43,031 bases of DNA from Nemertoderma westbladi (taxonomy: Eukaryota > Animalia > Xenacoelomorpha). The notes below the pieces were generated by a model. It searched no databases and had not been told where the DNA came from. It saw nothing but the letters and a program-made list of their open reading frames with translations. The DNA lies in NCBI GenBank assembly GCA_032718475.1, contig JAUCBJ010003487.1, positions 1-43,031 of the forward strand. The letters run 5' to 3'. Positions 4,597-35,824 of the stretch are shown here, piece by piece (position 1 is the first letter of the stretch; each line of letters opens with the position of its first letter). The position numbers were made by a program, and so were the translations under genes.

Positions 4597-5088
4597 CCTT
4601 TATATATGATAAAATACATTGACGGGCGGCAAATTAATGAGCAGTATTGTGTGTTACCGGTAGTGTGCATGATTGTGACCGATAACTAAGCATTTCCTAA
4701 AGAATGCGCCTCATACGTGAATCTTAAGCCTTACCGACTTGCCGTTGTGATTAGTATAAGTCATATCTCTGTTTACTTAGATAGAGCGCCACATCCTAAA
4801 GGAACTGTTAATATTTCCCGAAAGTAAATAATATTAGTCAGAAATTAATTATTAACGATCAATCGAATAATACAATACCGTAAGCTTCACTGCAATAATA
4901 ATCTAAGCCGACAGAATCCAGCCTCCCGGGATTATCCAGCGGGTGAATGGACGCGCACTAGGCTGGCTTCTGCTAATGTTGTGTTTATTGGTATTAAATA
5001 TTTGTCATCTTCTAAAGTATATTTATAAATCAAAAGACATATAAATTTTGGCAGGTTAAACTGCTAAAGGTCTTCAAAAGCGCGTACA
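4597..5088 (+). mobile_element. 3' (U5) fragment of a diverged BEL-family LTR, probably a solo LTR interrupted by the left-hand element
   Basis: Colinear with about 9642-10099 (e.g. tcctaaaggaactgttaatatttcccgaaagt; tttggcaggttaaactgctaaaggtct) and ends gcgcgtaCA. Confidence 0.9.
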
Positions 5089-6575: not shown

Positions 6576-7928
6576 TTATAATATCTGGTATTCATTTTTC
6601 CCGAATATTTTATAAAACGAGTTATGGAAATTGTTGTTCTCTTCAGACAGTTGTTGGCTATCACTAAAGGGTAGCCACCCAGTTTTTTTATTTTTTTGTT
6701 TTTCGATTGAAGGAATTTCGTTTAACTCCACTGCACATTCATGAAGCCTCGCTCGTGTATCAACCACATTAAAACGAAAATCTTTGTGCAGACTGCTAAA
6801 ATATAGGATTATGTCATGCGAATTCAACATATTTTTTATTTCTTCTTGGTGCAGAGAGAAGATGCAATACATCATTGCAATTAAGATTTCGTCTCCATAC
6901 AATAGGTATTCATCCCAAAACATACTAACCAAGGGATATGGAAGCTCATTAATATATATTTTCCGTGTCCAGGAATAAATAAAATTACAGAATATGTAAT
7001 CCATACAGCCATTGCTTACTAAATGATGGTATAGATCTGGCAGTTTATTCTTTAGAACCCACCGAGTTAAGTCATTCACATTCGCTACATGATCATCATG
7101 ACATACCATTATATTCCATATATAATCATAGTACGATCCCGTTGTTTCCTCCGTTGAAATTCCAGTGTAAAATCTACGCATATTATGATTCTGACCTGCC
7201 ATTAGCGAATTAAGGAACCAAAATGCTTCCTCCTCAGAATTTTCTCCCTCATCTTCGAGGTGGAAATAGAACCATTCGACAAGCTGGTGCATTCCTTTAG
7301 ATGCTTTATCATATGTGGCATAAGCAGATAGAACTTGAAAAACAAAACGAAGTGCCTTCAATTTCGCGTCTTCATCTATAGTGCCGCAACTTCTTGGGAA
7401 TAAATGGATCAATAAGTGTGAAGTACACCGCTGATAAGGTGATCTTGTCATATCTGCATCAATCTGTTTTAATGTTTGCAAATGCAAATTATTGTCCTGC
7501 GTTCGGGCAATTTTCTTGAATTTCTTATATTGACCGATGTTCTGTTCCTTGCGTTGATTCGCCCCCAAGAGATCCAACCATCTATTCGTAATACTTTGTC
7601 TGCGTGATTTGGAGTCGGGGCTATGCCATATACCGATACCATTTAACCTAATCTTTTCATAATCATTACTACGATCGTATCTCTGAAATATTTCATCCCT
7701 TTCCCTCTTCTGTATTATTTTCTTAATATCTTCGCTGTTTTCGTATTCAAAATCTGTTTTTTTTTCGTATTCAAAATCTGTTTTGTTTTCGTATTCAAAA
7801 TCTGTTTTGTTTTCGTATTCAAAATCTGTTTTGTTTTCGAAAAAACCCTGTTTTCGAATAAAGGTTTCATATGCCCGTTGCGATCCAAATCTCTCACGAA
7901 GTATAGTTTTTCGGATTGAATACGACAT
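6576..7928 (-). CDS. Intronless, divergent TBC-domain (Rab-GAP-like) protein related to USP6NL/RN-tre
   Basis: 450 aa ORF. ERDEIFQRYDR resembles the USP6NL N-terminal ERAEIVAKYDR. Contains the IxxDxxR motif (QIDADMTR), VLSAYATY, EEEAFWFL, LPDLYHHL and FWDEYLLYG, matching TBC helices. Confidence 0.8.
   Translation of the reverse strand: MSYSIRKTILRERFGSQRAYETFIRKQGFFENKTDFEYENKTDFEYENKTDFEYEKKTDFEYENSEDIKKIIQKRERDEIFQRYDRSNDYEKIRLNGIGIWHSPDSKSRRQSITNRWLDLLGANQRKEQNIGQYKKFKKIARTQDNNLHLQTLKQIDADMTRSPYQRCTSHLLIHLFPRSCGTIDEDAKLKALRFVFQVLSAYATYDKASKGMHQLVEWFYFHLEDEGENSEEEAFWFLNSLMAGQNHNMRRFYTGISTEETTGSYYDYIWNIMVCHDDHVANVNDLTRWVLKNKLPDLYHHLVSNGCMDYIFCNFIYSWTRKIYINELPYPLVSMFWDEYLLYGDEILIAMMYCIFSLHQEEIKNMLNSHDIILYFSSLHKDFRFNVVDTRARLHECAVELNEIPSIEKQKNKKTGWLPFSDSQQLSEENNNFHNSFYKIFGKNEYQIL
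7737..7839. repeat. 24-bp coding tandem repeat (ENKTDFEY)
   Basis: gttttcgtattcaaaatctgtttt repeated in frame within the TBC ORF. Confidence 0.9.
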
Positions 7929-8208
7929 CTTTACTGTTTTTTCTGTATGGCTATGACTGGATCTTGTAAATCATGTTTTCTTGGCCACGAATGAAAAATG
8001 TACCGTTTTATTGGGAAAAATTGGCGTAAATACCAGGTGGATAACATGTAAAAATCAACTATAACCCCCATTGAATAATTCTTCTATATTTTTTGTTAAA
8101 ATAATACGCCACTGCTCCTTGGCTGGCACCATTAATGCAAAATACAATTCCTTTACTTGATATAGATCATATTTTCTGGTGGTTTTTGAAACATCGTGCT
8201 ATTAATGA

Positions 8209-8503: not shown

Positions 8504-8849
8504 TCCATAAGTACCACTGTACCATACTGGCTTGGAAGACAACACTTTACCAAAGGGCGATTACGTAGAGAAAAAAAAGAAAGTGTAAGATACTGTACCT
8601 TTTTTGTGGACTATATTGATTTGTAATATTTTTAAAAGAAATTCATTTTTGACGCCCCTTAGCGGCCAGAGCCAAAATTTTCCAAAAAGTAATGTTTTTT
8701 CCGTAAAATGGTATAACAGATGAACAATCGCAAAATAAAAAAAAACTGCTCGAATTTTATTATAAACCACAAAACCATGCTAGCCCTTCTTGCCTTGCAG
8801 GTAACAGACCCCGAGAGAGGATACTTCGGGTTGCCTCCGGTGGTGAGTA

Positions 8850-10099
8850 TGTAAAAGCTTTTGCGGGATATAACTGGCCCTTTTCTCCGCAATGTACTGT
8901 GTAAGGTGTTTTTAGAGGACATAACTAGCGATTTATCCGCTGTGTCTGCATGTGTGCTTTAGCGGACATAAAAAGCCAGTTTTCCCACAATGCGCTCAAA
9001 TACTCTAAACTACCTAACTCAAATGACGCAATCTACCAACCGATTTGCTGTACGCCTATAGGCTCTTTGTTCTGTTCGATCAACCAATCAGAACAATGAT
9101 CCACCAATCAGAGCGATTTCGCCTTGTGTTGAATATGGGCTGCAAAAACCCGAATAGTTCGGCATTTAGACATTCGTGGAACCTACAGAATCTGGAACTC
9201 GGCCAATGAGAGCTGTTTCTCTTTGTGTTGAAAGATACCTACAACAGCCCAGAGGGATCAGTTGTGTTGGTTTTTTCCGAGCCTAGAAGACCGGCTTTGG
9301 AATCTCTGTGTTTTCAGGCTTTAGCCCAACATTAGTAGGCTTAATTATAGAACGTATATCTGTTATCTTACTTACTTAACAAATCAATCATAACATAACA
9401 TATCATAACCATTCATACCTTAACATTTGTACTGCTATTTACTGTCGGTTATTCATTATATCAGTTGATGGAATATTATTATATTGGATAATATCGATAA
9501 ATTAATCATAAAACCCTCAATCTTCTTGATATACTGAAGGTAAGAGAGACCGGTTACATATAACGATTGCAACTTACATTAAAGTGGTTTTGAAGTGAAT
9601 CTAATGCTATTTCATAGGCACTACATGTATCGGTCGTTGTTCTCTTTATATGTGACTAAATTAGTGAAGGTCGGCAGATCGGTGTGCAGCATTGTGCAGT
9701 AGTGTGTATGATTGTGACTGATAACAAAGCATCTCCTAAAGAATGCGCTATATACGTGAATCCATAGCCATCCCGTTGTGTCTAGTTTAAGTCATAACTC
9801 TGTTTACATATTTAGAGCGCCACGTCCTAAAGGAACTGTTAATATTTCCCGAAAGTGAATAATATTTGTCAGAGATTATATATTACGATCAGTCGAATAA
9901 TACAGTAGGCCTACACCGCAATAAGGTTAGGCTTCCAAATCCAGTCTCCCGGGTATATCCAGCGGGTGAATGATCGCGCATAGACTGGCTTCGGCTAATG
10001 TAGTGTATCAAATACTCGTCATAGGCTAAAGTCGATTTATTATCTAGAAGACATCCAAATTTGGCAGGTTAAACTGCTAAAGGTCTGAAAGCGCGAACA
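8850..10099 (+). repeat. 5' LTR (1250 bp)
   Basis: Matches 20220-21987 apart from an insertion and about 5 substitutions that I could see. Confidence 0.95.
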
Positions 10100-10110
10100 A
10101 TAACAGATAT
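10100..10110 (+). promoter_or_regulatory. Non-tRNA primer-binding site, complementary to LTR 9356-9366
   Basis: ATAACAGATAT directly abuts the LTR and has no TGG. Its reverse complement ATATCTGTTAT lies at 9356-9366. Copy 2 shows a compensatory change. Confidence 0.7.
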
Positions 10111-10379
10111 TGCTTCTGTATTGCAGTAGGCAATAAAGCTGAAGTACCGGTCAACCGGTACCTAGTAGGCCTGACTACCTAACCACCCGGACCGGTACCT
10201 ACAGCAGTACAGGTACAGCAGTATTATTCGAATTTGATAATTATATACCGGTAGGCCTTAATAATTAATCAGGGACGGCCGCCCTGGTTTTTTATTGAGA
10301 TTTTACTTGTTTCTGTCAGGTTTTATTTATTTGTAGGTTAATATTGAGCAGAAGACGTGTAAGCCTGCTCAGATTGTAC

Positions 10380-10958
10380 AGATAATTTGTAGGCTGGACT
10401 GTTGTCTGACTGTCGTTAGGTCTGAAGGGACTGTAGTGTGTGTAGAGCGTATGACCGAAAAAGTACTAGTTAGGAAAGTAGGGGCTTCCAGTGCTGTGAG
10501 GTAAACCCCCTCGAAAGAATAAGTCATACTACTCGGTTAGAACGCATACTAACTAACCATTTCGGAGTCTGCATATACTGTAGTTTATTTAGGCTTGATA
10601 GTAGTCTGCCAGCGTTTGGTCTGTACTTTGTTTGTGTAGTCTGTATGGGTAGCGTAATATTTCTTATTTAGATAATTTGTAGGCTGGATTGTTGTCTGGC
10701 TGTTGTTAGGTCTGAAGAGATTGCGGTGTGTGTAGAGTGTATGTCCGATAAAGTGCCAGTTGGGAACGTAGGGGCTTCCAGTGCTGTGAGGTAAACCCCC
10801 TGGAAAGAATAAGTCGTCCTACTCGGTTAGAACGCATACTAACTAACCATTTCGGAGTCTGCATATACCGTAGTTTGTTTAGGCTTGATAGTAGTCTGTC
10901 ATTATTTGGTCTGCATTTTGTTTGAGTAGTCTGTACGCGTAGCGTAATATTTATTATT
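10380..10958. repeat. 290-bp tandem duplication in the 5' leader
   Basis: agataatttgtaggctgga starts at 10380 and again at 10670. Copy 2 has a single unit (about 34045-34335). Confidence 0.9.
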
Positions 10959-12288
10959 CAGAGTTTATGCGATTATTCGCAACATTCATATCCCCAAGTT
11001 TATTCCTACAGTAATTGTGCTTGTTATATATACCGTTATAGTTAAATTAACCCCGGTACTACATCAGGGCTGCTTGGCGTAGGTAAAGACTGGTGATTTT
11101 GTGCCCCGGTCACTCCAGCAGATACCGTGGTTCTTTTAGCTGTTCAAGTATTTTTAACTACTGATTATTTGTTGTATAAGTACTTGTACCTAATTTAGGG
11201 TTTAGTGTACAGTGCTTTCCGAAGGTGATTAGTGTGTAGGCAGTATATTTGTGTTGTAAAGTGGTTAATAGGCACGTTGGTTCTGGTAGACCGCGGTAAT
11301 TCTAGGTAGAAACACTCCATGATACATAACATAGTACTTATAGCGATACGGCTATAAGTCGTCAGACGGTGGTATTTTTTCTATCTGGACAACGCAATAT
11401 ATTTACTACTGCTTGTTATTTTCAAATACCGTAGTACCCTGTCCGTTGTAATAACCAGATATTCTAACCCTTTGTTAGGCTGGTTTGTAGACTTCTTGTA
11501 AAATTACCCTAAAAATTCGTACGTGTAATTTTTGTGTTTATTTAGAGATTGTAATCTCACCCCGAATTGTTCGTAATTTGTAGTATTAAGTAACTTAGGT
11601 AAATTAGAATTATTTGTTTTAGTGTCCAACAAGTAGCATTTCACTGAGAGCGTACAGCTTCTGTGTAGTGACTCCTTCCCAGAAATAATAACATTTATTT
11701 CAAATATTGACAAAACCCATTATACGGGTATATATATTATAAATCAACTCAAACCGATTTATAAAATAGTAGGCCTGTCTTACAATAATTAGGTCTAAAT
11801 ATCAGTTGGACTACTGCTTAAATAACGGTAATAAAGTAAAGTAAAGTAACCAAGTAACCCCCTAAAATTCAGAAATTCAATTATTTAAAATAATTGACAT
11901 ACCGGTATTTACAATAGGCTTATTATATTTATTTCTATAAATTTAGGCTAAATTATATACCGGTATTCTGTGATTAATTCTAGTCTGTAATTATACTTAT
12001 ATATATACATTACAAGTGTAAGCTGTATACCAGTATTCACGATAGGCCTATCATATATTTATATATATTTACGCTAAAATTATATACCGGTATTCTGTGA
12101 CAAACCTAGTCTGTAATAATACTTATATATATACTATAAGCATACCGGTATTCTAATATATTATATATATATCACGCTACACTGAGTAGCAGTATCGGTA
12201 ATTAATTACTAGGCTAACAGTTGATACTGAATTACTAGACTTGCTTTAACTGTAATTTAGCAGTAGGCATTCAACTGTACAAATAAAC

Positions 12289-14817
12289 ATGTCTGACACA
12301 AAGCAAAACCTGTCAGACAGTCTCCTAGATACAACCATCTGTGACCCAGACAGGAGTGTGGAACGTGTGAGACCAAAGTTCCACTCACCTCCTACTGTAA
12401 GAAAGATCATCCCTCCAGTAGTAGTATCAGACCCTAGGCTAGTCCAACATCGTAGGTCTATCATAGGCACTCGAGCCCAAGTCAAGCGGGACCAAGAAGC
12501 AGCGGAACAGCAACAACCCGCGAGCCGAGAACTTATTTCTCAGCGGCCCGACAGCTCCAGTAGTGCGGATACTGTAGAGCTGACACCCGAGTGCGGAGCA
12601 AAGATGGCAGATGCGGTTTATTCGGATCCCCTTCTCATCCTTCCTGCAGCCGTACTCACTAGGGTATTGATTGCGGTGGAGGAACACCAGATTGATTGGG
12701 CGAGAAGTAAGCGATCGACTAAGGATAGTTATGCGGGATACACAAGGGAAGAACTGAAGTCTATTGTCGAGTCGCAATGGAACTTCCCCGGACCCGGACT
12801 CCCGTTTGACTTATCGGAAGCTGCCTGGGAAGACATACACAGGATGGGAGTAACAAAGGAAACCATCGATCCAGCTGTGTGGAAGAGGTCCGCAGCAGGA
12901 TACGTACAGGGATTCTTCAGCTCTTTGGAGAGATTAGAGGAACAACTGTTTCGACAACCCCAAGGACCTCAAGAGCAGGGAGAGCTGCTTTATCAAGTTC
13001 GAGAAAGAATTCTACGAATCCGACTAATCTTATCGGCCTTTGAGGAGGCTTCTAAAAGAAAACAAGATACGTCGTTGCAAGTTGCTGTAAAGACTTGGTT
13101 CCAGCGGGTGAGTCTCCAGGTTCAAGGAACTGCCCAGTGGAAATCTCAGCTGGCCGAGCACTCAACCCATGGAGAATCAACAGACGCTACATTTTCCCAA
13201 GTGGAAAGTGAAGCGACGGCAGAGAAACCGCATGAGAGGGACGCTATTGACATCTATCTGTCAGACTATCAACGATTTGTAGGTGACGAAGAGTTGAGGA
13301 GACGGCTGTCTGGACTTAGCCCTAATAGTGAAGGAGCCAAGCTTGTGTTGGACGCAATCGATGCGGATATGAGAGCTGCGAACCAAGCTAAATTTGATGA
13401 ACGCCTCCGCATCACTAGGGTCCAAGAAGAACAAGTAAAGAAAAAACGTATAGAAGACAGAAAGACAGCGGCAGTGGCAGCAGCAGTGGCAGCGGCAGAA
13501 GAGGAAAGAAAAGCGGCAGCGGCAGCGGCAGAGGCAGAAACGGAAAGAAAAGCGGCAGCAGCAGAAGCGGAAAGAAAAGCGGCAGCGGCCGAAGCGGAAA
13601 GAAAGGCGGCAGTGGTAGCGGCCGAAGCGGAAAGAAAGGCGGCAGTGGCAGCGGCAGAGGCAGTGGCAGAAGCAGAACGGAGAGCGTCTGAAGAAACCAC
13701 CCAACTAGAATTGGAAAACATTCAGGAGAATCAAGACTGCATAAATAAACAGTTAACAGCTAGTCAAATGCAGATGATGAGTCGATCAACTCCCAAAAGA
13801 CAGGGATATACATCATCTGAGGAAGGTGATACCACCGATCCTGAAGGCGGAGGAAATATATCTCGTCTAAGCAGGCATAGAAGAATGTCCGACCGTCAGA
13901 AATTGCCTGATTTGCCCCCAGCTGTTAGAAGGCAACTAACTAACACAAACTTAGGTAGTACAGAACCCACAGACCAAATAATTAACATAGAAAGAGTCCC
14001 TACTATAGTAGATGAGCCTGAAATAATTAGGCCTGTTCTCGAAGCCACCCCTTCGGTGATAGAGACACCTGTACTCCCAGAACCTACCTCTAAATTCCCT
14101 TTGCATAGCACTAAGCTACCTGTGCCCCACAGAACCATCCCTGAAAATGTTCATGTCCTGGACTCCGAGCGAAATATTAATGATTTGTCGCCCGTTGTCC
14201 CTCGTCCGCCCGCTACAACATTGGCGACTCCCGCTTCGGCGGTCGAGTGGGTGGATGAGAGACAGCGGGGGATGGATCTCCTGCTCGGGCAGATGCAGGA
14301 GACTGTTAAGCAGTTCAAGGGTACAGTAAGGGAAAGTAGGTTAGAGTTGCAAAAAGTGCAGCAAAGTATCGCATTAGAACGCGATAAATTAGTAAATACA
14401 CAAAGGGGTATACCACCACCCCCTGTAACAATGTGTCAACCTGTTAGGTCTGAAGTATTTCATGCGCAAGGTGTGGAGCCTACACGCATCTATACTGCTA
14501 GCGAAGTGGAAACTCCTATAGTAAACCCTATTAAGGGTAATTATAAACCTGTTGACAATGATATTCCATATAGACTTGATAATAATCCGAGAAATTTATA
14601 TACCGATAACTCGATATTAAATAACAAGATGGCCCAAGAAAGTTTTATGCGTCAAATGGCTAGAACCGAAGCCCGTCAAGCGGTAAAGGTGGGAGAGATC
14701 GTCAAGTTCAATGGAGATGAGATGAAATGGTTACCTTTTAATGAATATTACAAAGATAACATACAGAACTCTGTGTTATTATGGAGATGTGAACTTATGA
14801 AGGATCTCCCAAGTTAA
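12289..14817 (+). CDS. BEL/Pao Gag N-terminal part (frameshifted near 14780-14800)
   Basis: Closely similar to the first ~830 aa of ORF 28001-32731. Has an (AAAEAERK)n coiled coil and the gag motif KFNGDEMKWLPF. Local deletions relative to copy 2 shift the frame. Confidence 0.9.
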   Translation: MSDTKQNLSDSLLDTTICDPDRSVERVRPKFHSPPTVRKIIPPVVVSDPRLVQHRRSIIGTRAQVKRDQEAAEQQQPASRELISQRPDSSSSADTVELTPECGAKMADAVYSDPLLILPAAVLTRVLIAVEEHQIDWARSKRSTKDSYAGYTREELKSIVESQWNFPGPGLPFDLSEAAWEDIHRMGVTKETIDPAVWKRSAAGYVQGFFSSLERLEEQLFRQPQGPQEQGELLYQVRERILRIRLILSAFEEASKRKQDTSLQVAVKTWFQRVSLQVQGTAQWKSQLAEHSTHGESTDATFSQVESEATAEKPHERDAIDIYLSDYQRFVGDEELRRRLSGLSPNSEGAKLVLDAIDADMRAANQAKFDERLRITRVQEEQVKKKRIEDRKTAAVAAAVAAAEEERKAAAAAAEAETERKAAAAEAERKAAAAEAERKAAVVAAEAERKAAVAAAEAVAEAERRASEETTQLELENIQENQDCINKQLTASQMQMMSRSTPKRQGYTSSEEGDTTDPEGGGNISRLSRHRRMSDRQKLPDLPPAVRRQLTNTNLGSTEPTDQIINIERVPTIVDEPEIIRPVLEATPSVIETPVLPEPTSKFPLHSTKLPVPHRTIPENVHVLDSERNINDLSPVVPRPPATTLATPASAVEWVDERQRGMDLLLGQMQETVKQFKGTVRESRLELQKVQQSIALERDKLVNTQRGIPPPPVTMCQPVRSEVFHAQGVEPTRIYTASEVETPIVNPIKGNYKPVDNDIPYRLDNNPRNLYTDNSILNNKMAQESFMRQMARTEARQAVKVGEIVKFNGDEMKWLPFNEYYKDNIQNSVLLWRCELMKDLPS

Positions 14818-17255
14818 TGGCGTTAAAGTTTATTGGACATCCAGATGGATTAAGACAAGTTTGGGATACCCTAAACATCAGGTATGGTAATAGGAATAAC
14901 ATAGCTAGGTATTTGTATGCAAAATTGGTAGCGCCCCGAAAATTCATTAGCAGCGGGATTATAGAGTTTTCCGATGAAATTCAGGAGATCTGTAGACAAT
15001 TAGATTGGCTAGGTAAGTCTCATGAATATCAGAGTTCTATGGTTATTGGAGCCATGGCCTCTACTTTACCGAAGGGTGGAGTAGGTACACGCTGGGATAA
15101 GAAAGTGTTATATATGATGGAACATCAAAGACGAGACCCTACCATGGCTGATCTCATGTCATTCTTAGATGGAGAAGTAAAATTACAGCTCCTAAAGCAG
15201 TCCAGAGAGAAGACACCGGAAAATAAGGTAAGTGAGAAACCCGTTTCTAGGAGAAGGGTAATACCAGTGTGTTATACAGACGACGGCGAAAGCCAGGCTT
15301 CTCAAGAGGAAGACAGCGGGAAAGACACTGAAAGATCTTACTATGACAACAAAGCGCCTAAGGACGTAAGTAAATTCAAGTCTCGAACCAATGACAGGAG
15401 AGAACAGGTAAGAAAAACTCCTACGTCTCCTAAGAGAATTCATGTAAGAAAGCCCGAGGAAAGAACGAGTGTGCACAACGTTACCCAGAGTAAGGTAAGT
15501 AACATCAAACCAAAATGTGTGCTGTGCGACGGGCCCCACCGTTTGAATGTGTGTGATGAATTCCTGAGGAAATCACTAAAGGACAGACGTGAAGTCATGT
15601 GGGATAAGCGGTTGTGTTATAATTGCCTCAGACGAGGACACCAACGGCGAACCTGTTACTCCGACGCAAGGTGTGCAAAGTGCGGCGCAAAACATCATAT
15701 CTTGTTGCACACTGAATTCGATCGAAACAGCCCGAGTCAGGTAAGTGAGTCCGAACTACATGTCCAATTCAGTGATGTGAACGACACTGACCAAAGTTCT
15801 GAGATGGAAGGATTCTATACGGACGAATTCTCCGACGAAAACGAATCCTGTTACCTGATAAATACCGCAGTGTATCGAGCACTTACGTATGAAAAGGACA
15901 CCGACAGCGAGCTCCCCCTAACTACTTCTGACCGACAACCATCTTGGAAAGCACCAACTTCCAATGTAGGAATCCGAGAATTTCCCGTAGTGCAGTTAAG
16001 GGTCCACGGGCCACGAAGGAGTTATATAGTGAACGCCCTCCTTGACTCCGGTAGCACGGGAACATTCATCGACAAAGAACTAGCCGAAGACATCTTTGCT
16101 GGACAACCCAAGTTCCGAACCAAGTTAAACATGTCAGGAATTATGCAGGTTTGGAAATCTACAGTAATAGCGGATTATTATGTAGGTGCGTTGTCCACCC
16201 CCCAGGATGAACTAGGAGAACACAGCATAAGGTCAGTAAAAATGGTGGCGATAAAGAACTTCGCTACCAGCCAAGTAGAACCTTATAACTGGGATGAGGA
16301 CGATTTCACCCAGCAGCTTGATATACCTAGATTCAACACAGATTACCCTGGAGTGCAAATACTCATCGGTCAAAATGCGCATGAGGCGCTCGAGACATTG
16401 GAGAAACGGCCTGCTCAACCGCAACCACTACAAGCCTATGCGGGAAGAACTAGAGTAGGTTGGTACTTTACTGGCCTTTCCCGTAGAACTCTCATAGAAA
16501 GGTTACCAAAAGAACGGGTATACCAAGTAAGTGAATGGGAAGCGGAGAGCAGTGAGGTAGATGACCCAACTGAGGGAACACCACACTCCTCAGATAATGA
16601 CGATATTAACTCCAATGTAGATCAATGGAGACATTGCCCCAAGACGATTAATCTAACAGACATTGCTTCCAGAGGAGCAACTCCTCAAGAACTGACAGAT
16701 ACTCCAGACTGGTTAGGTGGCCCCGACTTCTTAAGTAAAGAAGATGAATGGCCTCCCCATCTTACCACGGCTGAGATTAGACAAGCCAAGGGAGCGGAGA
16801 AAGTCAAACCTAAAACCCGGACGAGTAAATCAAGGTTATTTAAACCCGTGATAGATCTGTCTGTATTACACATTGCCAGGGACGACACTGTGGATCTAAA
16901 CTCCCCCACCGCGAACCGATCTGTTGTGGAGATCAGAGAGAGAGACTGGAGATCTGGAACACCAGACGTCTCGCCGGGACTCTCACCTCTCCTGCCGGGA
17001 GCGATGGACCACTATAGATCCTGGAATCGGCTTTGTAAGGCCGTCGTGTATTTGAAGCAATGTTTCTATCGTCGCTATTCCAGGACGAAGAGGAAACCTG
17101 GAATTCTCTTCGAGACACAGCAGCTCAATCGCCCAGTTGGTCGTTTATGTTTACTGGAAAGAGACCGAGAACTGTCCGGAAACTATGGAAGGCAAGATAC
17201 TCTTCCCACGACCACCTCCCTAATCCAACAAACATCTAGGGACTCCCCAACGTAA
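14817..17255 (+). CDS. BEL/Pao Gag C-terminus plus aspartic protease plus short remnants of RNase H and the integrase C-terminus
   Basis: Knuckles CVLCDGPHRLNVC, CYNCLRRGHQRRTC and CAKCGAKHHILLH. Protease ALLDSGSTGTF. RNase H tail QWRHCPKTINLTDIASRG...WLGGPDFL...WP. Terminal LNRPVGRLCLLE, typical of the BEL pol end. Confidence 0.9.
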   Translation: MALKFIGHPDGLRQVWDTLNIRYGNRNNIARYLYAKLVAPRKFISSGIIEFSDEIQEICRQLDWLGKSHEYQSSMVIGAMASTLPKGGVGTRWDKKVLYMMEHQRRDPTMADLMSFLDGEVKLQLLKQSREKTPENKVSEKPVSRRRVIPVCYTDDGESQASQEEDSGKDTERSYYDNKAPKDVSKFKSRTNDRREQVRKTPTSPKRIHVRKPEERTSVHNVTQSKVSNIKPKCVLCDGPHRLNVCDEFLRKSLKDRREVMWDKRLCYNCLRRGHQRRTCYSDARCAKCGAKHHILLHTEFDRNSPSQVSESELHVQFSDVNDTDQSSEMEGFYTDEFSDENESCYLINTAVYRALTYEKDTDSELPLTTSDRQPSWKAPTSNVGIREFPVVQLRVHGPRRSYIVNALLDSGSTGTFIDKELAEDIFAGQPKFRTKLNMSGIMQVWKSTVIADYYVGALSTPQDELGEHSIRSVKMVAIKNFATSQVEPYNWDEDDFTQQLDIPRFNTDYPGVQILIGQNAHEALETLEKRPAQPQPLQAYAGRTRVGWYFTGLSRRTLIERLPKERVYQVSEWEAESSEVDDPTEGTPHSSDNDDINSNVDQWRHCPKTINLTDIASRGATPQELTDTPDWLGGPDFLSKEDEWPPHLTTAEIRQAKGAEKVKPKTRTSKSRLFKPVIDLSVLHIARDDTVDLNSPTANRSVVEIRERDWRSGTPDVSPGLSPLLPGAMDHYRSWNRLCKAVVYLKQCFYRRYSRTKRKPGILFETQQLNRPVGRLCLLERDRELSGNYGRQDTLPTTTSLIQQTSRDSPT

Positions 17256-20141: not shown

Positions 20142-20210
20142 CTGTTTAGAGTATTTTTATATTTTAGAAACTGTGATTTTTTATATTTTATAGAATTAAA
20201 TCCCATTTTC

Positions 20211-20219
20211 TGGGAGCGG
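20211..20219 (+). promoter_or_regulatory. Polypurine tract
   Basis: TGGGAGCGG immediately precedes the TGT of the 3' LTR. Confidence 0.75.
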
Positions 20220-21987
20220 TGTAAAAGCTTTTGCGGGATATAACTGGCCCTTTTCTCCGCAATGTACTGTGTAAGGTGTTTTTAGAGGACATAACTAGCG
20301 ATTTATCCGCTGTGTCTGCATGTGTGCTTTAGCGGACATAAAAATCCAGTTTTCCCACAATGCGCTCAAATACTCTAAACTACCTAACTCAAATGACGCA
20401 ATCTACCAACCGATTTGCTGTACGCCTATAGTCTCTTTGTTCTGTTCGATCAACCAATCAGAACAATGATCCACCAATCAGAGCGATTTCGCCTTGTGTT
20501 GAATATGGGCTGCAAAAACCCGAATAGTTCGGCATTTAGACATTCGTGGAACCTACAGAATCTGGAACTCGGCCAATGAGAGCTGTTTCTCTTTGTGTTG
20601 AAAGATACCTACAACAGCCCAGAGGGATCAGTTGTGTTGGTTTTTTCCGAGCCTAGAAGACCGGCTTTGGAATCTCTGTGTTTTCAGGCTTTAGCCCAAC
20701 ATTAGTAGGCTTAATTATAGAACGTATATCTGTTATCTTACTTACTTAACAAATCAATCATAACATAACATATCATAACCATTCATACCTTAACATTTGT
20801 ACTGCTATTTACTGTCGGTTATTCATTATATCAGTTGATGGAATATTATTATATTGGATAATATCGATAAATTAATCATAAAACCCTCAATCTTCTTGAT
20901 ATACTGAAGGTAAGAGAGACCGGTTACATATAACGATTGCGACTTACATTAACATGTCGTACGTATATTAGAACAACTAGCATTATTGATGCTATAAGTT
21001 GACAGCACACGATTACTGGACTACATAAACATAAAACATTGTCAGCTCCAGCGCCAATAAAAAAAAAAAGAAAAATACAATTCTCAGATGCACAATGCAT
21101 AAAGAAATAACAACATATATTATACATCATAGATTTGAGTAGTTACAATTTTATTGATATAGGTTAAGTTACATATTCGATTATAGCAATAACAATGTAT
21201 TTCTAAGTTTGGTAGCCTTACTAATAAAGATAGATAGATTTTTTACTTCAGATCTGGACTGGGATGATAATAATTTGCGGTACTTAAAAACGGATGGAAA
21301 TAATTGATAATACATTTTAATAAATTCTATTCTTAGTTCTCTGTATGCGGGACAAATCAGTAAAAAATGAAGTTCATCCTCAATTTTTTGAGTTACAGAT
21401 TCGACACAATCTCTCGGAAGGCTCCTGTCGCTCCCACCGGCCTACCTCCACTTGCAACCTGCTTCATTAAAGTGGTTTTGAAGTGAATCTAATGCTATTT
21501 CATAGGCACTACATGTATCGGTCGTTGTTCTCTTTATATGTGACTAAATTAGTGAAGGTCGGCAGATCGGTGTGCAGCATTGTGCAGTAGTGTGTATGAT
21601 TGTGACTGATAACAAAGCATCTCCTAAAGCATGCGCTATATACGTGAATCCATAGCCATCCCGTTGTGTCTAGTTTAAGTCATAACTCTGTTTACATATT
21701 TAGAGCGCCACGTCCTAAAGGAACTGTTAATATTTCCCGAAAGTGAATAATATTTGTCAGAGATTATATATTACGATCAGTCGAATAATACAGTAGGCCT
21801 ACACCGCAATAAGGTTAGGCTTCCGAATCCAGTCTCCCGGGTATATCCAGCGGGTGAATGATCGCGCATAGACTGGCTTCGGCTAATGTAGTGTATCAAA
21901 TACTCGTCATAGGCTAAAGTCGATTTATTATCTAGAAGACATCCAAATTTGGCAGGTTAAACTGCTAAAGGTCTGAAAGCGCGAACA
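20220..21987 (+). repeat. 3' LTR (1768 bp including a 512-bp insertion plus a 6-bp duplication)
   Basis: Direct repeat of 8850-10099. The length difference of 518 equals 512+6. Confidence 0.95.
20953..21464. mobile_element. Unclassified 512-bp insertion in the 3' LTR with a CATTAA duplication
   Basis: CATTAA at 20947-20952 and 21465-21470; the site is single in the 5' LTR. Confidence 0.85.
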
Positions 21988-27789: not shown

Positions 27790-28813
27790 ATGAATGAATT
27801 GAATGAATTGAATTTTAATGTCATGGGCTCATGCCCCCAGCAGCTAGCGGCTTACCAGACACCAGATTATAATAATGCACAGCACTATAACACAAAAATA
27901 TATTTAAAAAGAGAGATGAATAACTATAATTATAGACAAAACTGAATATAGCTGAAATATATGATAGAGAAAATATTCGAATTTACAAATCAGTAATCAA
28001 TTACAAATGATTGTACAATATATTTTTCCGTTCATCAAACAATGAAGATAAATATTTAACCGCACCAACTTGATTATCGCACATGAAATATTTAAGTTTT
28101 TGTTGATTATTTAATTTACGTATATCTAGTGGTATAGAAGAGCGGTCTAAAGCACTACAGTCACTCAGAAAGTGGACCTCATCCTCGATCTCGCCAGATC
28201 GGCACACAGTGCAAATGCGGTCTTCTAATGACCTGCCCTGGAACCGACCCACCTCGATCGCTAGAGGAAGAACTCCACACCGGAATTGAGCCATTAGACT
28301 GCGCTGGCTACGTGTAACACACTTATTAACAACATATTGCTCTGCACCGAAAATACTTTTAAATTTAATATAGGTACGTAGTTTAGGTTTCGATTTTAAT
28401 TCAGAACTCCACTTATCTTCAAAATATTTATCGCATGATTTGCTAAAATTATTTAAATTAACCTTAAGTTTCCTATGGTAAGAGTCTGTAAAATTAAGCA
28501 CCTTGAAAATACTTAGCATTTCATTGCACCACCCTGAGGTGTCACCATGATCAACATTAAAAATCTGTTTAGGCAGACGGTCATCTGTCATTTCCACCAA
28601 TCGGTTCCAGCGCCTAGCCAAGCTAAGATAACGTCTGTGTTGAGGATAAATCCAGCCCATTTCACCTTCAACTGCCAAGTTTGGTGTGAACTTATGGACA
28701 CCTAAGAATGATCGCATCACCTTTCGGTGTACAGTATCAATATCTGGTGCAGCTAGATACCCCCAAACACCAGACGCATAATCCAGGATGGGACAAACGC
28801 ATGAATTATATAA
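27790..28813 (-). mobile_element. 5'-truncated LINE (RTEX/CR1-like) with C-terminal CCHC finger and (ATTC/AATTC)n tail
   Basis: PILDYASGVWG...WNRL...KLRTYIKFK...FRCGVLPLAIEVGR...CTVC...EDEVHFLSDC. Stop at 28001, then a 3' UTR ending ATTAAAATTCAATTCATTCAATTCATTCAT. Confidence 0.85.
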
Positions 28814-31800
28814 TCCTAGTTTATCCTGTGGAGTGGACAACTCACCTATATAATAGTCGGCAGCTACAGTAGAATTCCAAACCTGCATGATCCCTGACAT
28901 GTTTAGCTTGGTTCGGAACTTGGGTTGTCCAGCAAAGATGACTTCGGCTAGTTCTTTATCGATGAATGTTCCTGTGCTACCGGAGTCCAGGAGGGCGTTC
29001 ACTATATAGCTCTTCTGAGGTCCGTGGACCCGTAACTGGACTACAGGAAATTCTCGGATTCCTATATTGGAAGTTGGCGTTTTCCAAGATGGTTGTTGAT
29101 CAGAAGTAGTTAAGGTAAGGTCGCTGTCTGTGTCTTTTTCATGCACGAGTGCTCGATACACTGCGGTGGTGTTTATTAGGTAACAGGATTCGTTTTGGTC
29201 GGAGAACTCGTCCGTATAGAATCCTTCCATCTCAGATTGATCAGTGTCGTTCACATCACTGAATTGGACATGTAGTTCGGACTCACTTACCTGACTCGGG
29301 CTGTTTCGTTCGAATTCCGTGTGCAACAAGATATGATGTTTGGCGCCGCACTTTGCACACCTTGCGTCGGAGTAACAGGTTCGCCGTTGGTGTCCTTGTC
29401 TGAGGCAATTATAACACAACCGCTTATCCCACATGACTTCACGTCTATCCTTTAGTGATTTCCTCAGGAATTTATCACACGCATTTAAACGGTGGGGCCC
29501 GTCGCACAGCACACATTTCGGCTTGATGTTACTTACTTTAACCTGTGCTATGTGGTGCACACTTGTTCTTTCCTCGGGCTTTCTCACCTGAATTCTTTTA
29601 GGAGACGTAGGAGGGGTTTTTTGTACCGGTTCCCTTCTGTCATTGGGTCGAGACTTGGATTTACTTACCTGATCTTTAGGCATTTTATTGACATAATAAG
29701 ACCTGTCAGTGTCTTTCCCGCTGTCCTCTCCTTGAGAGGTTTGGCTTTCACCGTCGTCGGTATAACATACTGGTGTTACCCTTCTCCTAGAAACGGGTTT
29801 CTCACTTACCTTACTTTCCGCTGTCTTCTCTCTGGACTGCTTTATGAGCTGTAATTTCACCTCGCTATCCAAGAATGACATGAGATCAGCCATGGTAGGG
29901 TCTCGTTGTTGTTGTTCCATCATGTATAACACTTTCTTGTCCCAGCGTGTACCTACTCTACCCTTCGGTAAAGTAGAAGCCACTGCTCTAATAACCATAG
30001 CACTCTGATACTCATGAGACTTACCTAGCCAATCTAATTGTCTGCAGATCTCCTGAATTTCATCGGAAAACTCTATAATCCCGCTGCTAATAAACTTTCG
30101 GGGCGCTACCAACTTTGCATACAAATACCCAGCTATGTTATTCCTATTACCATACCTGATGTTTAGTGTATCCCAAACTTGTCTTAATCCGTCTGGATGT
30201 CCAATAAACCTTAACGCCATTAACTTGGGAGGTCCTTCCAAGCACTCGATGAGGAATCTAAGTTTCTCTCCATTAGATAGTACAGAGTTCTGTATGTTAT
30301 CTTTGTAATATTCATTAAAAGGTAACCATTTCATCTCATCTCCATTGAACTTGACGATCTCTCCCACCTTTACCGCTTGCCGGGCTTCGGTTCTAGCCAT
30401 TTGACGCGTAAAACTTTCTTGGGCCATCGTGTTATTTAATATCGAGTTATCGGTATATAAATTTCTCGGATTATGATCAGGTCTATAGGGAATGTCATTA
30501 TCAACAGGTCTATAATTACCCTTAATAGGGTTCACTATAGGAGTTTCTACTTCGCTAGCAGTATATATGCGTGTAGGCTCCACACCTTGCGCATGAGATA
30601 CTTCAGACCTAACAGGTTGACACATTGTTACCGAGGGTGGTGGTATACCCCTTTGTGTATTTACTAATTTATCGCGTTCTAGCGCGATACTTTGCTGCAC
30701 TTCTTGCAACTCTAGCCTACTTTCCCTTACTGTGCCCTTGAATTGCTGAACAGTCTCCTGCATCTGCCCGAGCAGGAGATCCATCCCCCGCCGTCTCTCG
30801 TCCACCCATTCGACCGCCGAAGCGGGAGTCGCCAACGTTGTAGCGGGCGGACGAGGGACAACGGGCGACAAATCATGAATATTTCGCTCGGGGTCCAGGA
30901 CCTGAACTGTCTCCTGGGCAGTTCTACTGGGCACAGGTAGCTTAGTGCTATGCAGAGGGAATTTAGAGGTAACTTCAGGGAGCACAGGTGTGTCTATCAC
31001 CGAAGGGGTGATTTCAAGAACAGGCCTAATTATTTCAGGCTCATCTACTATAGTAGGGAGTCTTTCTATTTTAATTATTTGGTCTGTGGGCTCTGTACTA
31101 CCTAAGTTGGTGTTATTTAGTTGCCTTCTAACAGCTGGAGGCAAATCAGGCAATTTCTGACGGTGGAATGTTCTTTTACGTCTGCTTAGACGAGATCTAT
31201 TTCCTTTGCCTTCAGTATCGGTGGTATCGCCTTCCTCAGATGATGTATATCCCTGTCTTTTGGGAGTAGATCGATTCATCATCTGCATATTACTAGCTGT
31301 TAACTGTTTATTTATGCAGTCTTGATTCTCCTGAATGTTTTCCAATTCTAATTGGGTGGTTTCTTCGGACGCTCTCCGTTCTGCTTCTGCCACTGCCTCG
31401 GCCGCCTTTCTTTCAGCTTCGCCGCTTTGCTTCTGCCGCTGCTCTGCCGCCTTGCCTCTGCCGCTGCCTCTCGCCTTTGCCTCTGCCGCTGCCTCTGCCG
31501 CTGCCGCTTTTCTTTCTGCTTCTGCCGCTGCCACTGCTGCTGCCACTGCCGCTGTCTTTCTGTCTTCTATACGTTTTTTCTTTACTTGCTCCTCCTGGAC
31601 TCGTGTGATGCGGAGTTGTTCATCAAATTTAGCCTGGTTCGCAGCCCTCATTTCCACATCGATGGCATCCAACACAAGCTTGGTTCCTTCACTATTAGGG
31701 CTAAGTCCCTCTAACCTTCTCCTCAACTCGTCATCACCTAAAAAACGTTGATAGTCTGACAGATAGATGTCAATGGCATCCCTCTTATGCGGTTTCTCTG

Positions 31801-32731
31801 CCGTCGCTTCACTTTCCACTTGGGAAAAAGTAGCGTCTGTTGATTCTCCATGGGTTGAGCGCTCCTCCAGCTGAGCTTTCCACTGAGCTGTTCCTTGAAC
31901 CTGGCGACTCACCCGTTGAAACCAAGTCTTTACGGCAACTTGCAACGACGTGTCTTGTCTTCTTTTAGAAGCCTCTTCAAAGGCTGATAATATTAGCCTG
32001 ATTCGCAGAATTCTTTCTCTAACTTGATAAAGCAGTTGTCCCTGCTCTTGAGGTCCTTGAGGTTGTTGTAACAGTTGTTTTTCTACTCGCTCCATAGAGC
32101 TGAAGAATCCCTGTGCGTATCCGGCTGCGGACCTCTTCCACACAGCTGGATCGATGGTTTCCTTGGCTACTCCCATCCGGTGTATGTCTTCCCAGGCAGC
32201 TTCTGATAAATCAAACGGGAGTCCGGGTCCGGGGAAGTTCCATTGCGACTCGACAATAGACTTCAGTTCTTCCCTCGTGTATCCCGCATAACTATCTCTA
32301 GTTGATCGCTGACTTCTCGCCCAATCGATCTGGTGTTCTTCCACCGCAATCAATAACCTAGTGAGTACGGCTGCAGGAAGGATGAGAAGGGGATCCGAAT
32401 AAACCGCATCCATCATCTTTGCTCCGCGTTCTGGTGTCAGTTCTACAGTATCCTCACTACTGGAGCTGTTGGGCCGTTGAGAAGTAAGTTCTTGGCTCGC
32501 GGGTTGTTGCTGTTCTGCTGCTTCTTGGTCCCGCTTGACCTGAGCTCGAGTGCCTATGATAGACCTACGATGTTGGACCAGCCTAGGTTCTGTTATTACT
32601 ACAGGAGGGATGACCTTCCTCACAGTGGGAGGTGAACTGAACTTACGACTAGACGGTTCTACGCCTCTATCTGAGTCGCAGATAGTTACATCTAATAAAC
32701 TGTCTGACAGGTTCTGCTTAGTATCAGACAT
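28001..32731 (-). CDS. Chimeric ORF: BEL/Pao Gag-protease fused in frame to a LINE ORF2 C-terminus
   Basis: 1576 aa uninterrupted. Homology with copy 1 ends at STPQDKLG (28814) and LINE sequence begins at LYNSCVCPILDY. Confidence 0.9.
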   Translation of the reverse strand: MSDTKQNLSDSLLDVTICDSDRGVEPSSRKFSSPPTVRKVIPPVVITEPRLVQHRRSIIGTRAQVKRDQEAAEQQQPASQELTSQRPNSSSSEDTVELTPERGAKMMDAVYSDPLLILPAAVLTRLLIAVEEHQIDWARSQRSTRDSYAGYTREELKSIVESQWNFPGPGLPFDLSEAAWEDIHRMGVAKETIDPAVWKRSAAGYAQGFFSSMERVEKQLLQQPQGPQEQGQLLYQVRERILRIRLILSAFEEASKRRQDTSLQVAVKTWFQRVSRQVQGTAQWKAQLEERSTHGESTDATFSQVESEATAEKPHKRDAIDIYLSDYQRFLGDDELRRRLEGLSPNSEGTKLVLDAIDVEMRAANQAKFDEQLRITRVQEEQVKKKRIEDRKTAAVAAAVAAAEAERKAAAAEAAAEAKARGSGRGKAAEQRQKQSGEAERKAAEAVAEAERRASEETTQLELENIQENQDCINKQLTASNMQMMNRSTPKRQGYTSSEEGDTTDTEGKGNRSRLSRRKRTFHRQKLPDLPPAVRRQLNNTNLGSTEPTDQIIKIERLPTIVDEPEIIRPVLEITPSVIDTPVLPEVTSKFPLHSTKLPVPSRTAQETVQVLDPERNIHDLSPVVPRPPATTLATPASAVEWVDERRRGMDLLLGQMQETVQQFKGTVRESRLELQEVQQSIALERDKLVNTQRGIPPPSVTMCQPVRSEVSHAQGVEPTRIYTASEVETPIVNPIKGNYRPVDNDIPYRPDHNPRNLYTDNSILNNTMAQESFTRQMARTEARQAVKVGEIVKFNGDEMKWLPFNEYYKDNIQNSVLSNGEKLRFLIECLEGPPKLMALRFIGHPDGLRQVWDTLNIRYGNRNNIAGYLYAKLVAPRKFISSGIIEFSDEIQEICRQLDWLGKSHEYQSAMVIRAVASTLPKGRVGTRWDKKVLYMMEQQQRDPTMADLMSFLDSEVKLQLIKQSREKTAESKVSEKPVSRRRVTPVCYTDDGESQTSQGEDSGKDTDRSYYVNKMPKDQVSKSKSRPNDRREPVQKTPPTSPKRIQVRKPEERTSVHHIAQVKVSNIKPKCVLCDGPHRLNACDKFLRKSLKDRREVMWDKRLCYNCLRQGHQRRTCYSDARCAKCGAKHHILLHTEFERNSPSQVSESELHVQFSDVNDTDQSEMEGFYTDEFSDQNESCYLINTTAVYRALVHEKDTDSDLTLTTSDQQPSWKTPTSNIGIREFPVVQLRVHGPQKSYIVNALLDSGSTGTFIDKELAEVIFAGQPKFRTKLNMSGIMQVWNSTVAADYYIGELSTPQDKLGLYNSCVCPILDYASGVWGYLAAPDIDTVHRKVMRSFLGVHKFTPNLAVEGEMGWIYPQHRRYLSLARRWNRLVEMTDDRLPKQIFNVDHGDTSGWCNEMLSIFKVLNFTDSYHRKLKVNLNNFSKSCDKYFEDKWSSELKSKPKLRTYIKFKSIFGAEQYVVNKCVTRSQRSLMAQFRCGVLPLAIEVGRFQGRSLEDRICTVCRSGEIEDEVHFLSDCSALDRSSIPLDIRKLNNQQKLKYFMCDNQVGAVKYLSSLFDERKNILYNHL

Positions 32732-34601
32732 GTTTATGTGTACAGTTGAATGTCTACTGCTGTATTACAGTCTGAGCAAGTCTAGTAACTCAGTATTAAC
32801 TGCTAGCCTAGTAATTAATTACCGGTACTGCTACTCAGTGCAGCGTGATATATATAATATATTAGAATACCGGTATGCTTATAGTATATATAACTATATA
32901 AGTATTATTACAGACTAGGTTTATCACAGAATACCGGTATAATTTTAGCACAAATATATATAAATATATAATAGGCCTATCGGAATACCGGTATACAGCT
33001 TACAGTTTGTAGTATATATAATTCTGGACTAGAATTAATTACAAGTACCGGTATAATTTCAGCCTAAATTTATAGAAATAAAGATAATAGGCCTATCGTA
33101 AATACCGGTATATCAATTATTTTAAATAATTGAATTTCTGAATTTTAGGGTTACTTGGTTACTTTACTTACTTTATTACCGTTATTTGAGCAGTAATCCA
33201 ACTGATATTGAGACCTAATGGTTGTATGGTAGGCCTACTATTTATAAATCGTTAGATTTGATTTATAATATATATATACCCGTTTTAATGGGTTTTGTCA
33301 ATGTTTGAAATAAATGTTATTATTTCTGGGGAGTAATCACTACACAAAGCGGTGCGCTTTCAGTGAAGTGTTACTTATAGGACACTAAAACAAATAATGC
33401 TAATTTACCTAAGTTACTTAATACTACAAATTACATACAATTCGGGTGAGATTACAATCTCTAAATAAACACAAAAATTTACAAAAACACAAATACGAAT
33501 TTTCAGGGTAATTTTACAAGAAGTCTACAAACCAGCCTAACAAAGGGTTAGAAATCTGGTTATTACAACGGACAGGGTACTACGGTATTTGAAAATAATA
33601 AGTAGTAGTAAATACACTGCGTTGTCCAGATAGGAAAATACCACCGCCTGACGACCTATAGCCGTATCGCTATAGGTACTACGTTATGTATCACGGAGTG
33701 TTCCTACCTAGAAGTTAATAGAGCTAATCGAACGTGCCTATCAACCACTTTACAACACAAATATAATGTCTACACTAATTACTTTCGGAAAGCACTGTAC
33801 ACTAAACCCTAAATTAGGTACGAGTACTTGTACAACATATAATCAGTAGTTAAATATACTTGAACAGCTAAAAGAACCACGGCATCTGCTGGAGTGACCG
33901 GTGCACAAAATCACCAGTCTTTACCTACGCCAAGCAGCCCGTGTAGTACCGGGGTTAATTTAACTATAGCGGTATGTATAACAAACACAATTATTGTAGG
34001 AACAAACTTGGGGAATGAATGTTGCGAATAATCGCATAAACTCTGAATAATAAATATTACGCTACGCGTACAAACCACTCAAACAAAATGCAGACCAAAT
34101 ACTGACAGACTACTATCAAGCCTAAATAAACTACAGGACATGCAGACTCCGAAATGATTAGGTAGTATGCGTTCTAACCCAGTAGCACGACTTATTCTTT
34201 AGTTGGGGGTTTACCTTACAGCTTTGGCTGCCCCTACTTCCTAACCGTTCTTTATCGGACAGAGGCTCTACACACACTGCAATCCGTTCAGACCTAATAA
34301 CAGCCAGACAACTATCCAGCCTACAAATTGTCTGTACAATCTGATCAGGCTTACACGCCTTCTGTTCAATACTGGCCTACAAACAAATAAAACTTGACAG
34401 AAATAAGTAAAAATCTCAATAAAAAACCAGGGCTGCAGTCCCTGATTAATTATTAAGGCCTACCAGTATATAATTATCAAAATCGAATAATACTGCTGTA
34501 CCTGTACTGCAGTATGTACCGGTCCGGGTGGTTAGGTAGTCAGGCCTACTTGGTACCGGTTGCCGGTACTTCAGCTTTATTGCCTACTGCAATACAGAAG
34601 C

Positions 34602-34613
34602 TATATCCGTTAT
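34602..34613 (-). promoter_or_regulatory. Non-tRNA PBS of copy 2, complementary to LTR 35350-35361
   Basis: Minus strand ATAACGGATATA abuts the LTR. Minus-strand TATATCCGTTAT lies at 35361-35350. Confidence 0.7.
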
Positions 34614-35824
34614 TGTTCGCGCTTTCAGACCTTTGGCAGTTTAACCCGCCAAATTAGGATGTCTTCTAGATAATAAATCACTTTTAGCCTCTGACAAGTA
34701 TTTGATTCACTACACTAGTCGAAACCAATCGGTGCGCGATCATTCACCCGCTGGATATACCCGTGAGATTGGGTTCGACGGCTTAATCGTATTGCTATGT
34801 AAGCCTAATGTATTATTCGACTGACAGTATTATATAATTTCTGACAATATTATTCACCTTCGGGGAATATTAACAGTTCCTTTAGGACGTGGCGCTCTAT
34901 CTATATAAACAGAGTTATGACTTAAACTACTCACAACGATATGGCTTAGTTATAATTCACATATATGGCGCATTCTTTAGGAAATGCTTCGTTATCAGTC
35001 TCACTCATACACAATACTGCACAATACTGCACACTAATCTGCCGATCTTCACTGATTTTAGTCACATATAAAAGGAACACAGACAAACTCATGTAGGGTC
35101 TATCAAATAACATTAGATTCACTTCAAACCACTTTAACATAAGTCGCAATCGTTATATGTAACCTTTCTCTCTTACCTTCGGTATATCAAGAATATTGGG
35201 TTTCGGGGTTATTTCTCGTTATTCCAAATATAATAATTCATCAACAAATATAATGAATAACCGACAGCAAAGCAGTAATGTTAAGTTAAGTTGCACAGTA
35301 TGGGCCAGTTAACTAGTGTTAACCAGTGCAGTTATGATGGTACATGCAGATAACGGATATATGTCCTTATAATTAAGCCTACTAGTGTTAGGCTAAAAGC
35401 AGAAAAGCACAAATATTCCAAAAGCCGTTCTTTCTTGGCTCAGGACTGAATGATAACACTGCCCATAAAGCATTGCGTGATTTCTAGGAAATTTCTGTAC
35501 AAGAACAGTAAAAACGCTCTGATTGGTTGACTGAACTGAGAGATGCCGTAGAACAAAGAAAATCAACACGTATGAATATCAGCTGTTAACCGTCGTCATA
35601 GTAACTACTGTTCAAGAGTATCTAGCCGCTTTTGCATCACGGAATTGCCATAGAATCATCAACTATGCCTTCCACAGTACGCATACGGAAGAAATAGCTC
35701 TTAGATCCTCTAAAAACACCGATACAGCAATAATACGGCCTCTTACGCCTATTAAACCAACTACAGAGTATTTTACGGGAAAAATAAGGAAAAATAACCG
35801 GGCAATTCAGCAAAAGCTTTTACA
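34614..35824 (-). repeat. 5' LTR of copy 2 (1211 bp)
   Basis: TGTAAAAGC...GAAAGCGCGAACA termini. The 3' two thirds are alignable to the copy 1 LTR; the 5' third is strongly diverged. Confidence 0.92.

Follow-up and report, generated by a model that had tools for sequence, protein, structure and literature searches.

The results of this analysis suggest that a family of LTR retrotransposons is quite likely to prime reverse transcription with RNA from its own LTR, independently of tRNA. Two copies of this family lie in the window (the whole stretch of 43,031 nucleotides of Nemertoderma westbladi DNA that was analysed), and its sequence identifies the family as non-autonomous and BEL/Pao-derived. 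Priming by LTR RNA is supported because the primer-binding slot and its complement in the LTR covary, because the slot varies among copies, and because 21 other BEL/Pao elements, in which the 5' LTR end could be read, split into elements of the TGG type and self-matching elements. The two copies and a third LTR fragment have the following parts:

8845..8849 (+), target-site duplication (TSD) GAGTA, 5 bp, bounding copy 1, with its right copy at 21988-21992
8850..10099 (+), 5' LTR of copy 1, 1250 bp, TGTAA..GAACA, with TG..CA ends
12256..14817 (+), Gag N-terminal open reading frame (ORF) of copy 1, without a Pfam match
14793..17255 (+), ORF of copy 1 running from Gag (DUF1759, triple Cys-His) through the protease (LLDSG) to a C-terminal remnant of a Pao RNase H
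20212..20219 (+), purine-rich tract immediately 5' of the 3' LTR of copy 1, a putative polypurine tract
20220..21987 (+), 3' LTR of copy 1, interrupted by a 518-bp insertion and carrying the primer sequence at 20726-20736
34614..35824 (-), 5' LTR of copy 2, 1211 bp, lying within an older BEL/Pao element, in its integrase region
28001..32764 (-), Gag-protease ORF of copy 2, with DUF1759 above the Pfam cut-off
4598..5088 (+), third LTR fragment, more diverged (75-77%), without the primer region and not followed by an internal part

Copy 1 is a complete insertion, with two LTRs and GAGTA on either side. The end of its 5' LTR had been placed at 10099 from the target-site duplication, and this position holds, the duplication flanking 8850-21987. 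The two LTRs differ by five mismatches in 1250 nt when the 518-bp insertion of the 3' LTR is excluded; this insertion (20953-21470) lies in a young LTR and has a 6-bp duplication at its flanks. Neither a reverse transcriptase (RT) nor an integrase core was found in copy 1. The RNase H remnant was recognized with E values of 5e-6 against the neighbouring Peptidase_A17 ORF and 1e-6 against P0056, and the ORF at 14793-17255 continues uninterrupted from the protease into this remnant, skipping the RT, an architecture that possibly points to a stable, non-autonomous family encoding only Gag and protease. Two further ORFs, of 104 and 151 aa, lie in the 3' region of copy 1 (18784-19712), the longer one without a Pfam match. 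The 3' LTR of copy 2 is absent from the window, and the LTR end of this copy was set by homology to copy 1, with which it shares about 87-90% identity in R-U5, the leader and the coding parts. DUF1759 scores 43.7 bits in copy 2 and 22.6 bits, under the cut-off, in the split ORF of copy 1, and the LLDSG protease motif is present in both. Homology to copy 1 stops at 28814, after the protease, and the ORF of copy 2 beyond this point carries a motif that we take to resemble a LINE C-terminus. An intact RT is missing from both copies, and neither encodes the RT/RNase H needed for priming. The family has TG..CA LTRs with a 5-bp TSD, an LLDxG protease and a Gag that combines DUF1759 with a triple Cys-His box, the latter being a BEL/Pao hallmark (PMC554778, excerpt).

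The slot and the LTR site that would supply the primer are located as follows:

10100..10110 (+), primer-binding slot of copy 1, abutting the LTR and without TGG
9356..9366 (+), intra-LTR complement, the predicted self-primer of copy 1, with its 3' end at 9366
34602..34613 (-), primer-binding slot of copy 2, 12 nt
35350..35361 (-), intra-LTR complement of copy 2, 12 nt, compensated

A full-length tRNA primer requires TGG in its site, because tRNAs end in CCA. The preliminary description had noted that a sequence other than TGG follows the 5' LTR with no spacer, and neither copy has a TGG within 148-185 nt, the first one past the LTR lying at offset 185 in copy 1 and 148 in copy 2. Both copies that have a slot (2 of 2) carry its exact reverse complement in the LTR, 11 nt long in copy 1, just where it had been reported, and 12 nt long in copy 2, at slot-to-site distances of 744 and 748 nt, respectively. 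Complementarity ends at the LTR edge in both copies, with none into the LTR end; the match thus ends where the 3' end of a primer must lie for a minus strand that begins with the terminal bases of the LTR. The LTR alignment shows the two intra-LTR sites to be orthologous, with one T/C difference that is mirrored by one A/G difference in the slot. The co-change about 740 nt apart that had been described for copy 2 is therefore real, although only one pair is compensated between the two copies, and the twelfth pair in copy 2 stems from a one-sided difference. The sequence just 3' of the LTR site was said to have diverged between the copies; it does diverge, but only after two bases that are still shared. 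Exact complements of at least 11 nt within the 1250 nt upstream occur at 0.27-0.28% of window positions (41751 per strand), a count that includes inverted-repeat elements, and the expectation from composition is 1.1e-3 and 2.4e-4. The probability of the matching change is 0.013 at R-U5 rates (T>C rate 0.053, divergence 0.132), or 0.053 if the remaining 10 bases are kept for another reason.

Slot variation was followed in Logan contigs from four runs, in which depths were summed, unphased and not equivalent to copy numbers, and in which no contig covers both slot and site. The family is large and diverse, with 9586 contig pieces in run X1. Among the matches listed, C>A at 10104 accounted for 0.30 and 0.41 of the summed depth (21 and 8 contigs) and A>G at 10105 for 0.64 and 0.80 (41 and 20 contigs) in X1 and X3, respectively, two runs that come from two studies. 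Two contigs of run X5, which has another organism code and may be DNA, have a loose end in which the slot differs yet again, behind an LTR end resembling that of the third fragment. The slot thus varies among copies, unlike a fixed tRNA site, and the C>A change would be incompatible with wobble pairing to one fixed primer. If self-priming holds, an RNA should end at 9366/9367, and slot position 5 should covary in phase with the LTR site.

An alignment of 30 BEL/Pao polyproteins led to 66 related loci (L003-L068) in MAG records and GTDB representative genomes, which are probably misbinned animal host DNA in prokaryote bins; many carry both LTRs and target duplications. The 49 loci with usable flanks comprised five in which the flank was too short, 13 without an LTR pair, 10 with cut or unrelated repeats only and 21 with a 5' LTR end. 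In 14 of these 21, which represent about eight families (seven are near-copies of one), TGG occurs within 7 nt of the LTR, and none of the 14 passed the self-match test; most of these sites presumably read like a tRNA-Tyr site. The other seven (L006, L007, L012, L014, L019, L022 and L023) have no tRNA-type site, L019 being grouped with them since its TGG, at offset 1, lies within its self-match. Five of the seven (L006, L007, L012, L014 and L019) have an exact 11-nt LTR match at offset 0-1 across a GT[AG]AG..YAG intron. In the four elements for which a null was computed (L012 was not among them), such split matches were found for 0-2 of 600 interior 11-mers; the LTR end of L012 was picked among five CA ends, its 3' LTR being cut. 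The remaining two show near matches outside the preset rule, with 10 of 11 bases in L023 and 11 of 11 at offset 8 in L022. The self-match that the preliminary description had suggested testing for in related elements without a tRNA site is exact across an intron in five of seven and nearly so in two. Three slot bases and three donor-side bases change together between L006 and L007. All seven self-matching relatives have AATAAA in the second exon, 8-36 nt from its start; unlike these, copies 1 and 2 have no AATAAA close after the primer.

In a quick Pol tree with long branches, the seven self-type elements all lie to the same side of a branch, in a 14-row group (SH-aLRT 99) that also holds fish, amphioxus, sea urchin, coral and snail proteins and, on a long branch, the RNase H of the older element in the window. 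In an equally quick Gag-protease tree (five of the 21 loci lack a knuckle ORF), copies 1 and 2 are on a long branch outside the self-type group, so that they may or may not be kin of the seven relatives. A search for homologues of the Gag-protease gave one weak match among 2672 candidates, and a scan of viral contigs found no relative. Two DNA-pattern matches in metagenome contigs were rejected as chance matches in bacterial DNA.

Under the favoured explanation, the transcript would begin at 9356 or somewhat upstream, and 9356-9366 would fold back onto 10100-10110 during leader synthesis. A cut 3' of 9366, likely made in trans by the RNase H of an autonomous partner, would leave a 3' end sitting precisely at the LTR edge, from which an RT, also supplied in trans, would extend the primer through U5 and R before the DNA is transferred to the 3' LTR. 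The data fix only the 3' end of the primer; its 5' end may coincide with the cap or be located further upstream. Two features bear on the start and processing of the transcript:

9084..9207 (+), three CCAAT boxes (9084, 9104 and 9203) in the diverged U3-like part, a putative promoter
9538..9544 (+), candidate splice donor, AG/GTAAG, kept in both copies, 3' of the primer

In its strictest form, self-priming would follow the Tf1 mode, in which the RNA begins at 9355-9356 and its first 11-12 nt serve as the primer; we rate this narrower version at somewhat short of an even chance. The primer is contiguous, a T/A start dinucleotide is present at 9355/9356 in both copies, and 9320-9349, just upstream of the site, is strongly conserved between them. 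The preliminary description had argued for Tf1-like self-priming, of which priming by the element's own LTR RNA has gained support (from the covariation, the variable slot and the 21 elements), whereas a primer made of the first 11 nt is unproven: in the seven relatives the primer spans a predicted splice junction and is hence internal, about 220-240 nt past TATA-like boxes in L006, L007 and L012. That description had also set the site soon after the onset of conserved sequence; conservation does start upstream, but about 77 nt away, at 9279, and therefore does not fix the transcript start. Promoter-like motifs conflict. CCAAT at 9203, together with an initiator-like TCAGTT at 9258, would in our assumption set the start near 9260, upstream of the primer and against the strict mode, whereas the TATA-like TATAG at 9346-9350, if used, would put it near 9376, downstream of the primer, and priming from the 5' LTR would therefore be ruled out. 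Acceptor-like pyrimidine tracts were seen by eye in the leader (10300-10340), and splicing to them from the donor at 9538-9544 would take the primer-binding slot out of the Gag mRNA.

Predicted folding bears on both the start and the fold-back, and involves the following segments:

9893..9903 (+), LTR segment predicted to pair with 10221-10231 in a helix that crosses the primer helix; contains AATACA
10221..10231 (+), leader partner of 9893-9903
10060..10081 (+), predicted U5 hairpin, in which two differences of copy 2 preserve pairing
10108..10136 (+), predicted hairpin that overlaps the slot and then extends past it

The predicted probability of the primer helix is highest (0.85-0.97) when the RNA starts 0-11 nt upstream of the site, in agreement with the strict Tf1 mode, falls to 0.001-0.06 for starts 66-96 nt upstream, and is 0.33 and 0.004 at 126 nt; folding thus speaks mildly for a start no more than about 45 nt from the site, with the caveat that pairing between fragment ends is favoured anyway. 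For RNA running from the site to the leader partner at most, the helix has a probability of 0.65-0.96 in copy 1 and 0.51-0.96 in copy 2. With a longer leader, it drops in copy 1 from 0.65-0.95 (ends up to 10235) to 0.001-0.007 beyond 10260, being at or below 0.01 when folded to 10260-10300, and likewise in copy 2 from 0.96 to 0.0. The 9893-9903/10221-10231 helix is predicted in both copies at 0.96-0.98, and nested folding models cannot contain both crossing helices; in these models, the second helix would displace the primer helix as the leader lengthens. The crossing helices may be a switch, a real pseudoknot or an artefact of the model. A switch might alternate between priming and another state of the RNA, for example one in which a poly(A) signal of the 5' LTR is hidden: AATACA is present in all three LTRs, and it is possible that it is such a signal, masked by the leader at the 5' LTR only. 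Folding was not a dependable detector even in relatives, with values of 0.00, 0.005, 0.08, 0.43 and 0.91 in five spliced leaders. In Tf1, a U5 stem-loop structure is reportedly needed for cleavage, and in copies 1 and 2 predicted hairpins, which may or may not be equivalent to it, flank the LTR edge on both sides.

Priming might also occur in trans, from a short LTR-only RNA or a second packaged genome, with no fold-back within the same molecule. In its favour, the LTR copies in run X1 are very numerous, and the loop between primer and slot is long (733-736 nt in copies 1 and 2, as against 45-149 nt in five relatives after splicing). We nevertheless regard this as unlikely, as the covariation inside each copy points to joint inheritance of primer and slot and, with several slot variants in the genome, free priming in trans would tend to uncouple the pairs. 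It is slightly less likely still that the pairing is a structural leader helix or switch alone and that a host RNA or a protein acts as the primer: further long-range leader helices do exist and cross the primer helix, but this would leave unexplained both why the match ends at the LTR edge, here and in five of the seven relatives, and why it is absent from all 14 TGG-type elements. Priming by an internal tRNA fragment, with the LTR match due to chance or a relic of a one-off inversion, is highly improbable, for although half-tRNA priming exists in Ty1/copia lineages (PMC6317226, excerpt), chance would have to act at about 0.003 times 0.013-0.053 and variants at slot positions 5 and 6 are common among the matches listed. 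No tRNA was found in the window with ARAGORN. A weak tRNA-like Rfam match at 24494-24556 (-), unrelated to the slot, may represent the head of a SINE; an inverted repeat that is long and perfect (24725-24813) lies near it.

Other elements share the window. An LTR-type family at the left end, on the minus strand, has an ORF running leftwards from about 1250 and an exact 12-nt complement (3492-3481 against 2442-2431, 1050 nt apart), followed by a 29-nt hairpin whose ends and length match those in copies 1 and 2; its crossing helices also behave as in these copies, with a drop from 0.98 to 0.001. The complement can be read in two ways, either as a second self-primer with the LTR ending at 2443, or as the 12-bp terminal inverted repeats of an LTR at 3492-2431, the purine tract in front of which, like that of copy 1, agrees with the latter. 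This family has no 3' LTR within the window and was excluded from the support for self-priming. The older element into which copy 2 is inserted is:

35834-39491 (-), older BEL/Pao element, with RT (YVDD), RNase H and integrase pieces interrupted by stops and frame changes

It matches Peptidase_A17 and Integrase_H2C2 and has tandem repeats in its leader (40244-40959); no LTR end was identifiable in 35834-41200 among 110 CA ends tested. An uninterrupted ORF of 464 aa with a RabGAP-TBC domain (6576-7970, -), lying amid repeats, is a host gene exon or a retrocopy.

Tentatively, and with less confidence than for the strict Tf1 mode, a whole BEL/Pao branch in aquatic animals may be proposed to have swapped tRNA priming for an internal self-primer, usually spliced together by the host across an LTR intron. 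The family of copies 1 and 2 would be its intron-less form, the crossing helices a co-transcriptional switch between priming and normal use as mRNA, and the left-end family might share the design. If self-priming holds, BEL/Pao would be the third superfamily to use it, after Ty3/gypsy and, by prediction, plant Ty1/copia; tRNA independence would have arisen or survived repeatedly, missing primer sites in annotation would be explained, and the elements might escape regulation by tRNA fragments. Were the primer internal or built by splicing, the cut would be unlike that of Tf1 and replication would be tied to splicing. Some BEL-type Cer elements have reportedly been proposed to encode a tRNA-like primer of their own, which would amount to self-supply of another kind.

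The preliminary description knew of no self-priming in BEL/Pao, and a search of titles and abstract openings, with several older papers and Repbase outside its scope, gave no report of it either. The coverage includes PMC3601003, PMC5443660, PMC6934838, PMC8220671 and PMC3286476 (excerpts); PBS and tRNA go unmentioned in the excerpt of PMC554778, as do primer, PBS, tRNA and self in PMC3118150. Self-priming in BEL/Pao is, thus, likely to be absent from print. The ICTV profile of Belpaoviridae describes an 18-nt site for a host tRNA (PMC8742986). The present family resembles Belpaoviridae in its triple Cys-His Gag, LLDSG protease, Pao RNase H remnant and LTRs with a 5-bp TSD, but differs in having no host-tRNA site, RT or integrase; given that no TGG occurs within 148-185 nt, it is filed as a BEL/Pao-derived variant and not as a typical member. 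The primer is copied into the site by the plus strand in retroviruses but not in Ty1 and Ty3 (PMC7472051, excerpt); if such copying occurs in BEL/Pao elements, a change in the LTR site would reach the slot without a second mutation.

Plant Tcn1 chromoviruses and the TAR/Houba/Osr-1 Ty1/copia elements have self-primers predicted from sequence only, on the criterion of an LTR complement of at least 10 nt starting 0-5 nt past the 5' LTR (PMC6317226, excerpt). The self-primer described here is called by the same LTR-complement criterion, in BEL/Pao rather than in plant Ty3/gypsy and Ty1/copia, and recurrence across superfamilies is therefore already known from the plant predictions in that excerpt. 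In Tf1 and Tf2 of S. pombe and Tj1 of S. japonicus, which belong to the Tf1/sushi group, the PBS complements 11 nt of the element's own LTR, and the cut in Tf1/sushi elements is predicted after the 11th paired base (PMC7175516, PMC4600332, PMC5341516; excerpts). Copies 1 and 2 likewise have an LTR-adjacent site complementary to about 11 nt of their own LTR. They differ from Tf1/sushi elements, which are of the Ty3/gypsy chromovirus lineage, in a Gag, protease and RNase H remnant of BEL/Pao type and in a 733-nt loop; their primer would be the first 11 nt in the strict mode, whereas their relatives build it across an intron, and priming here, unlike in Tf1, is predicted from sequence. The mechanism would be Tf1-like, but the element is not a member of the Tf1/sushi group.
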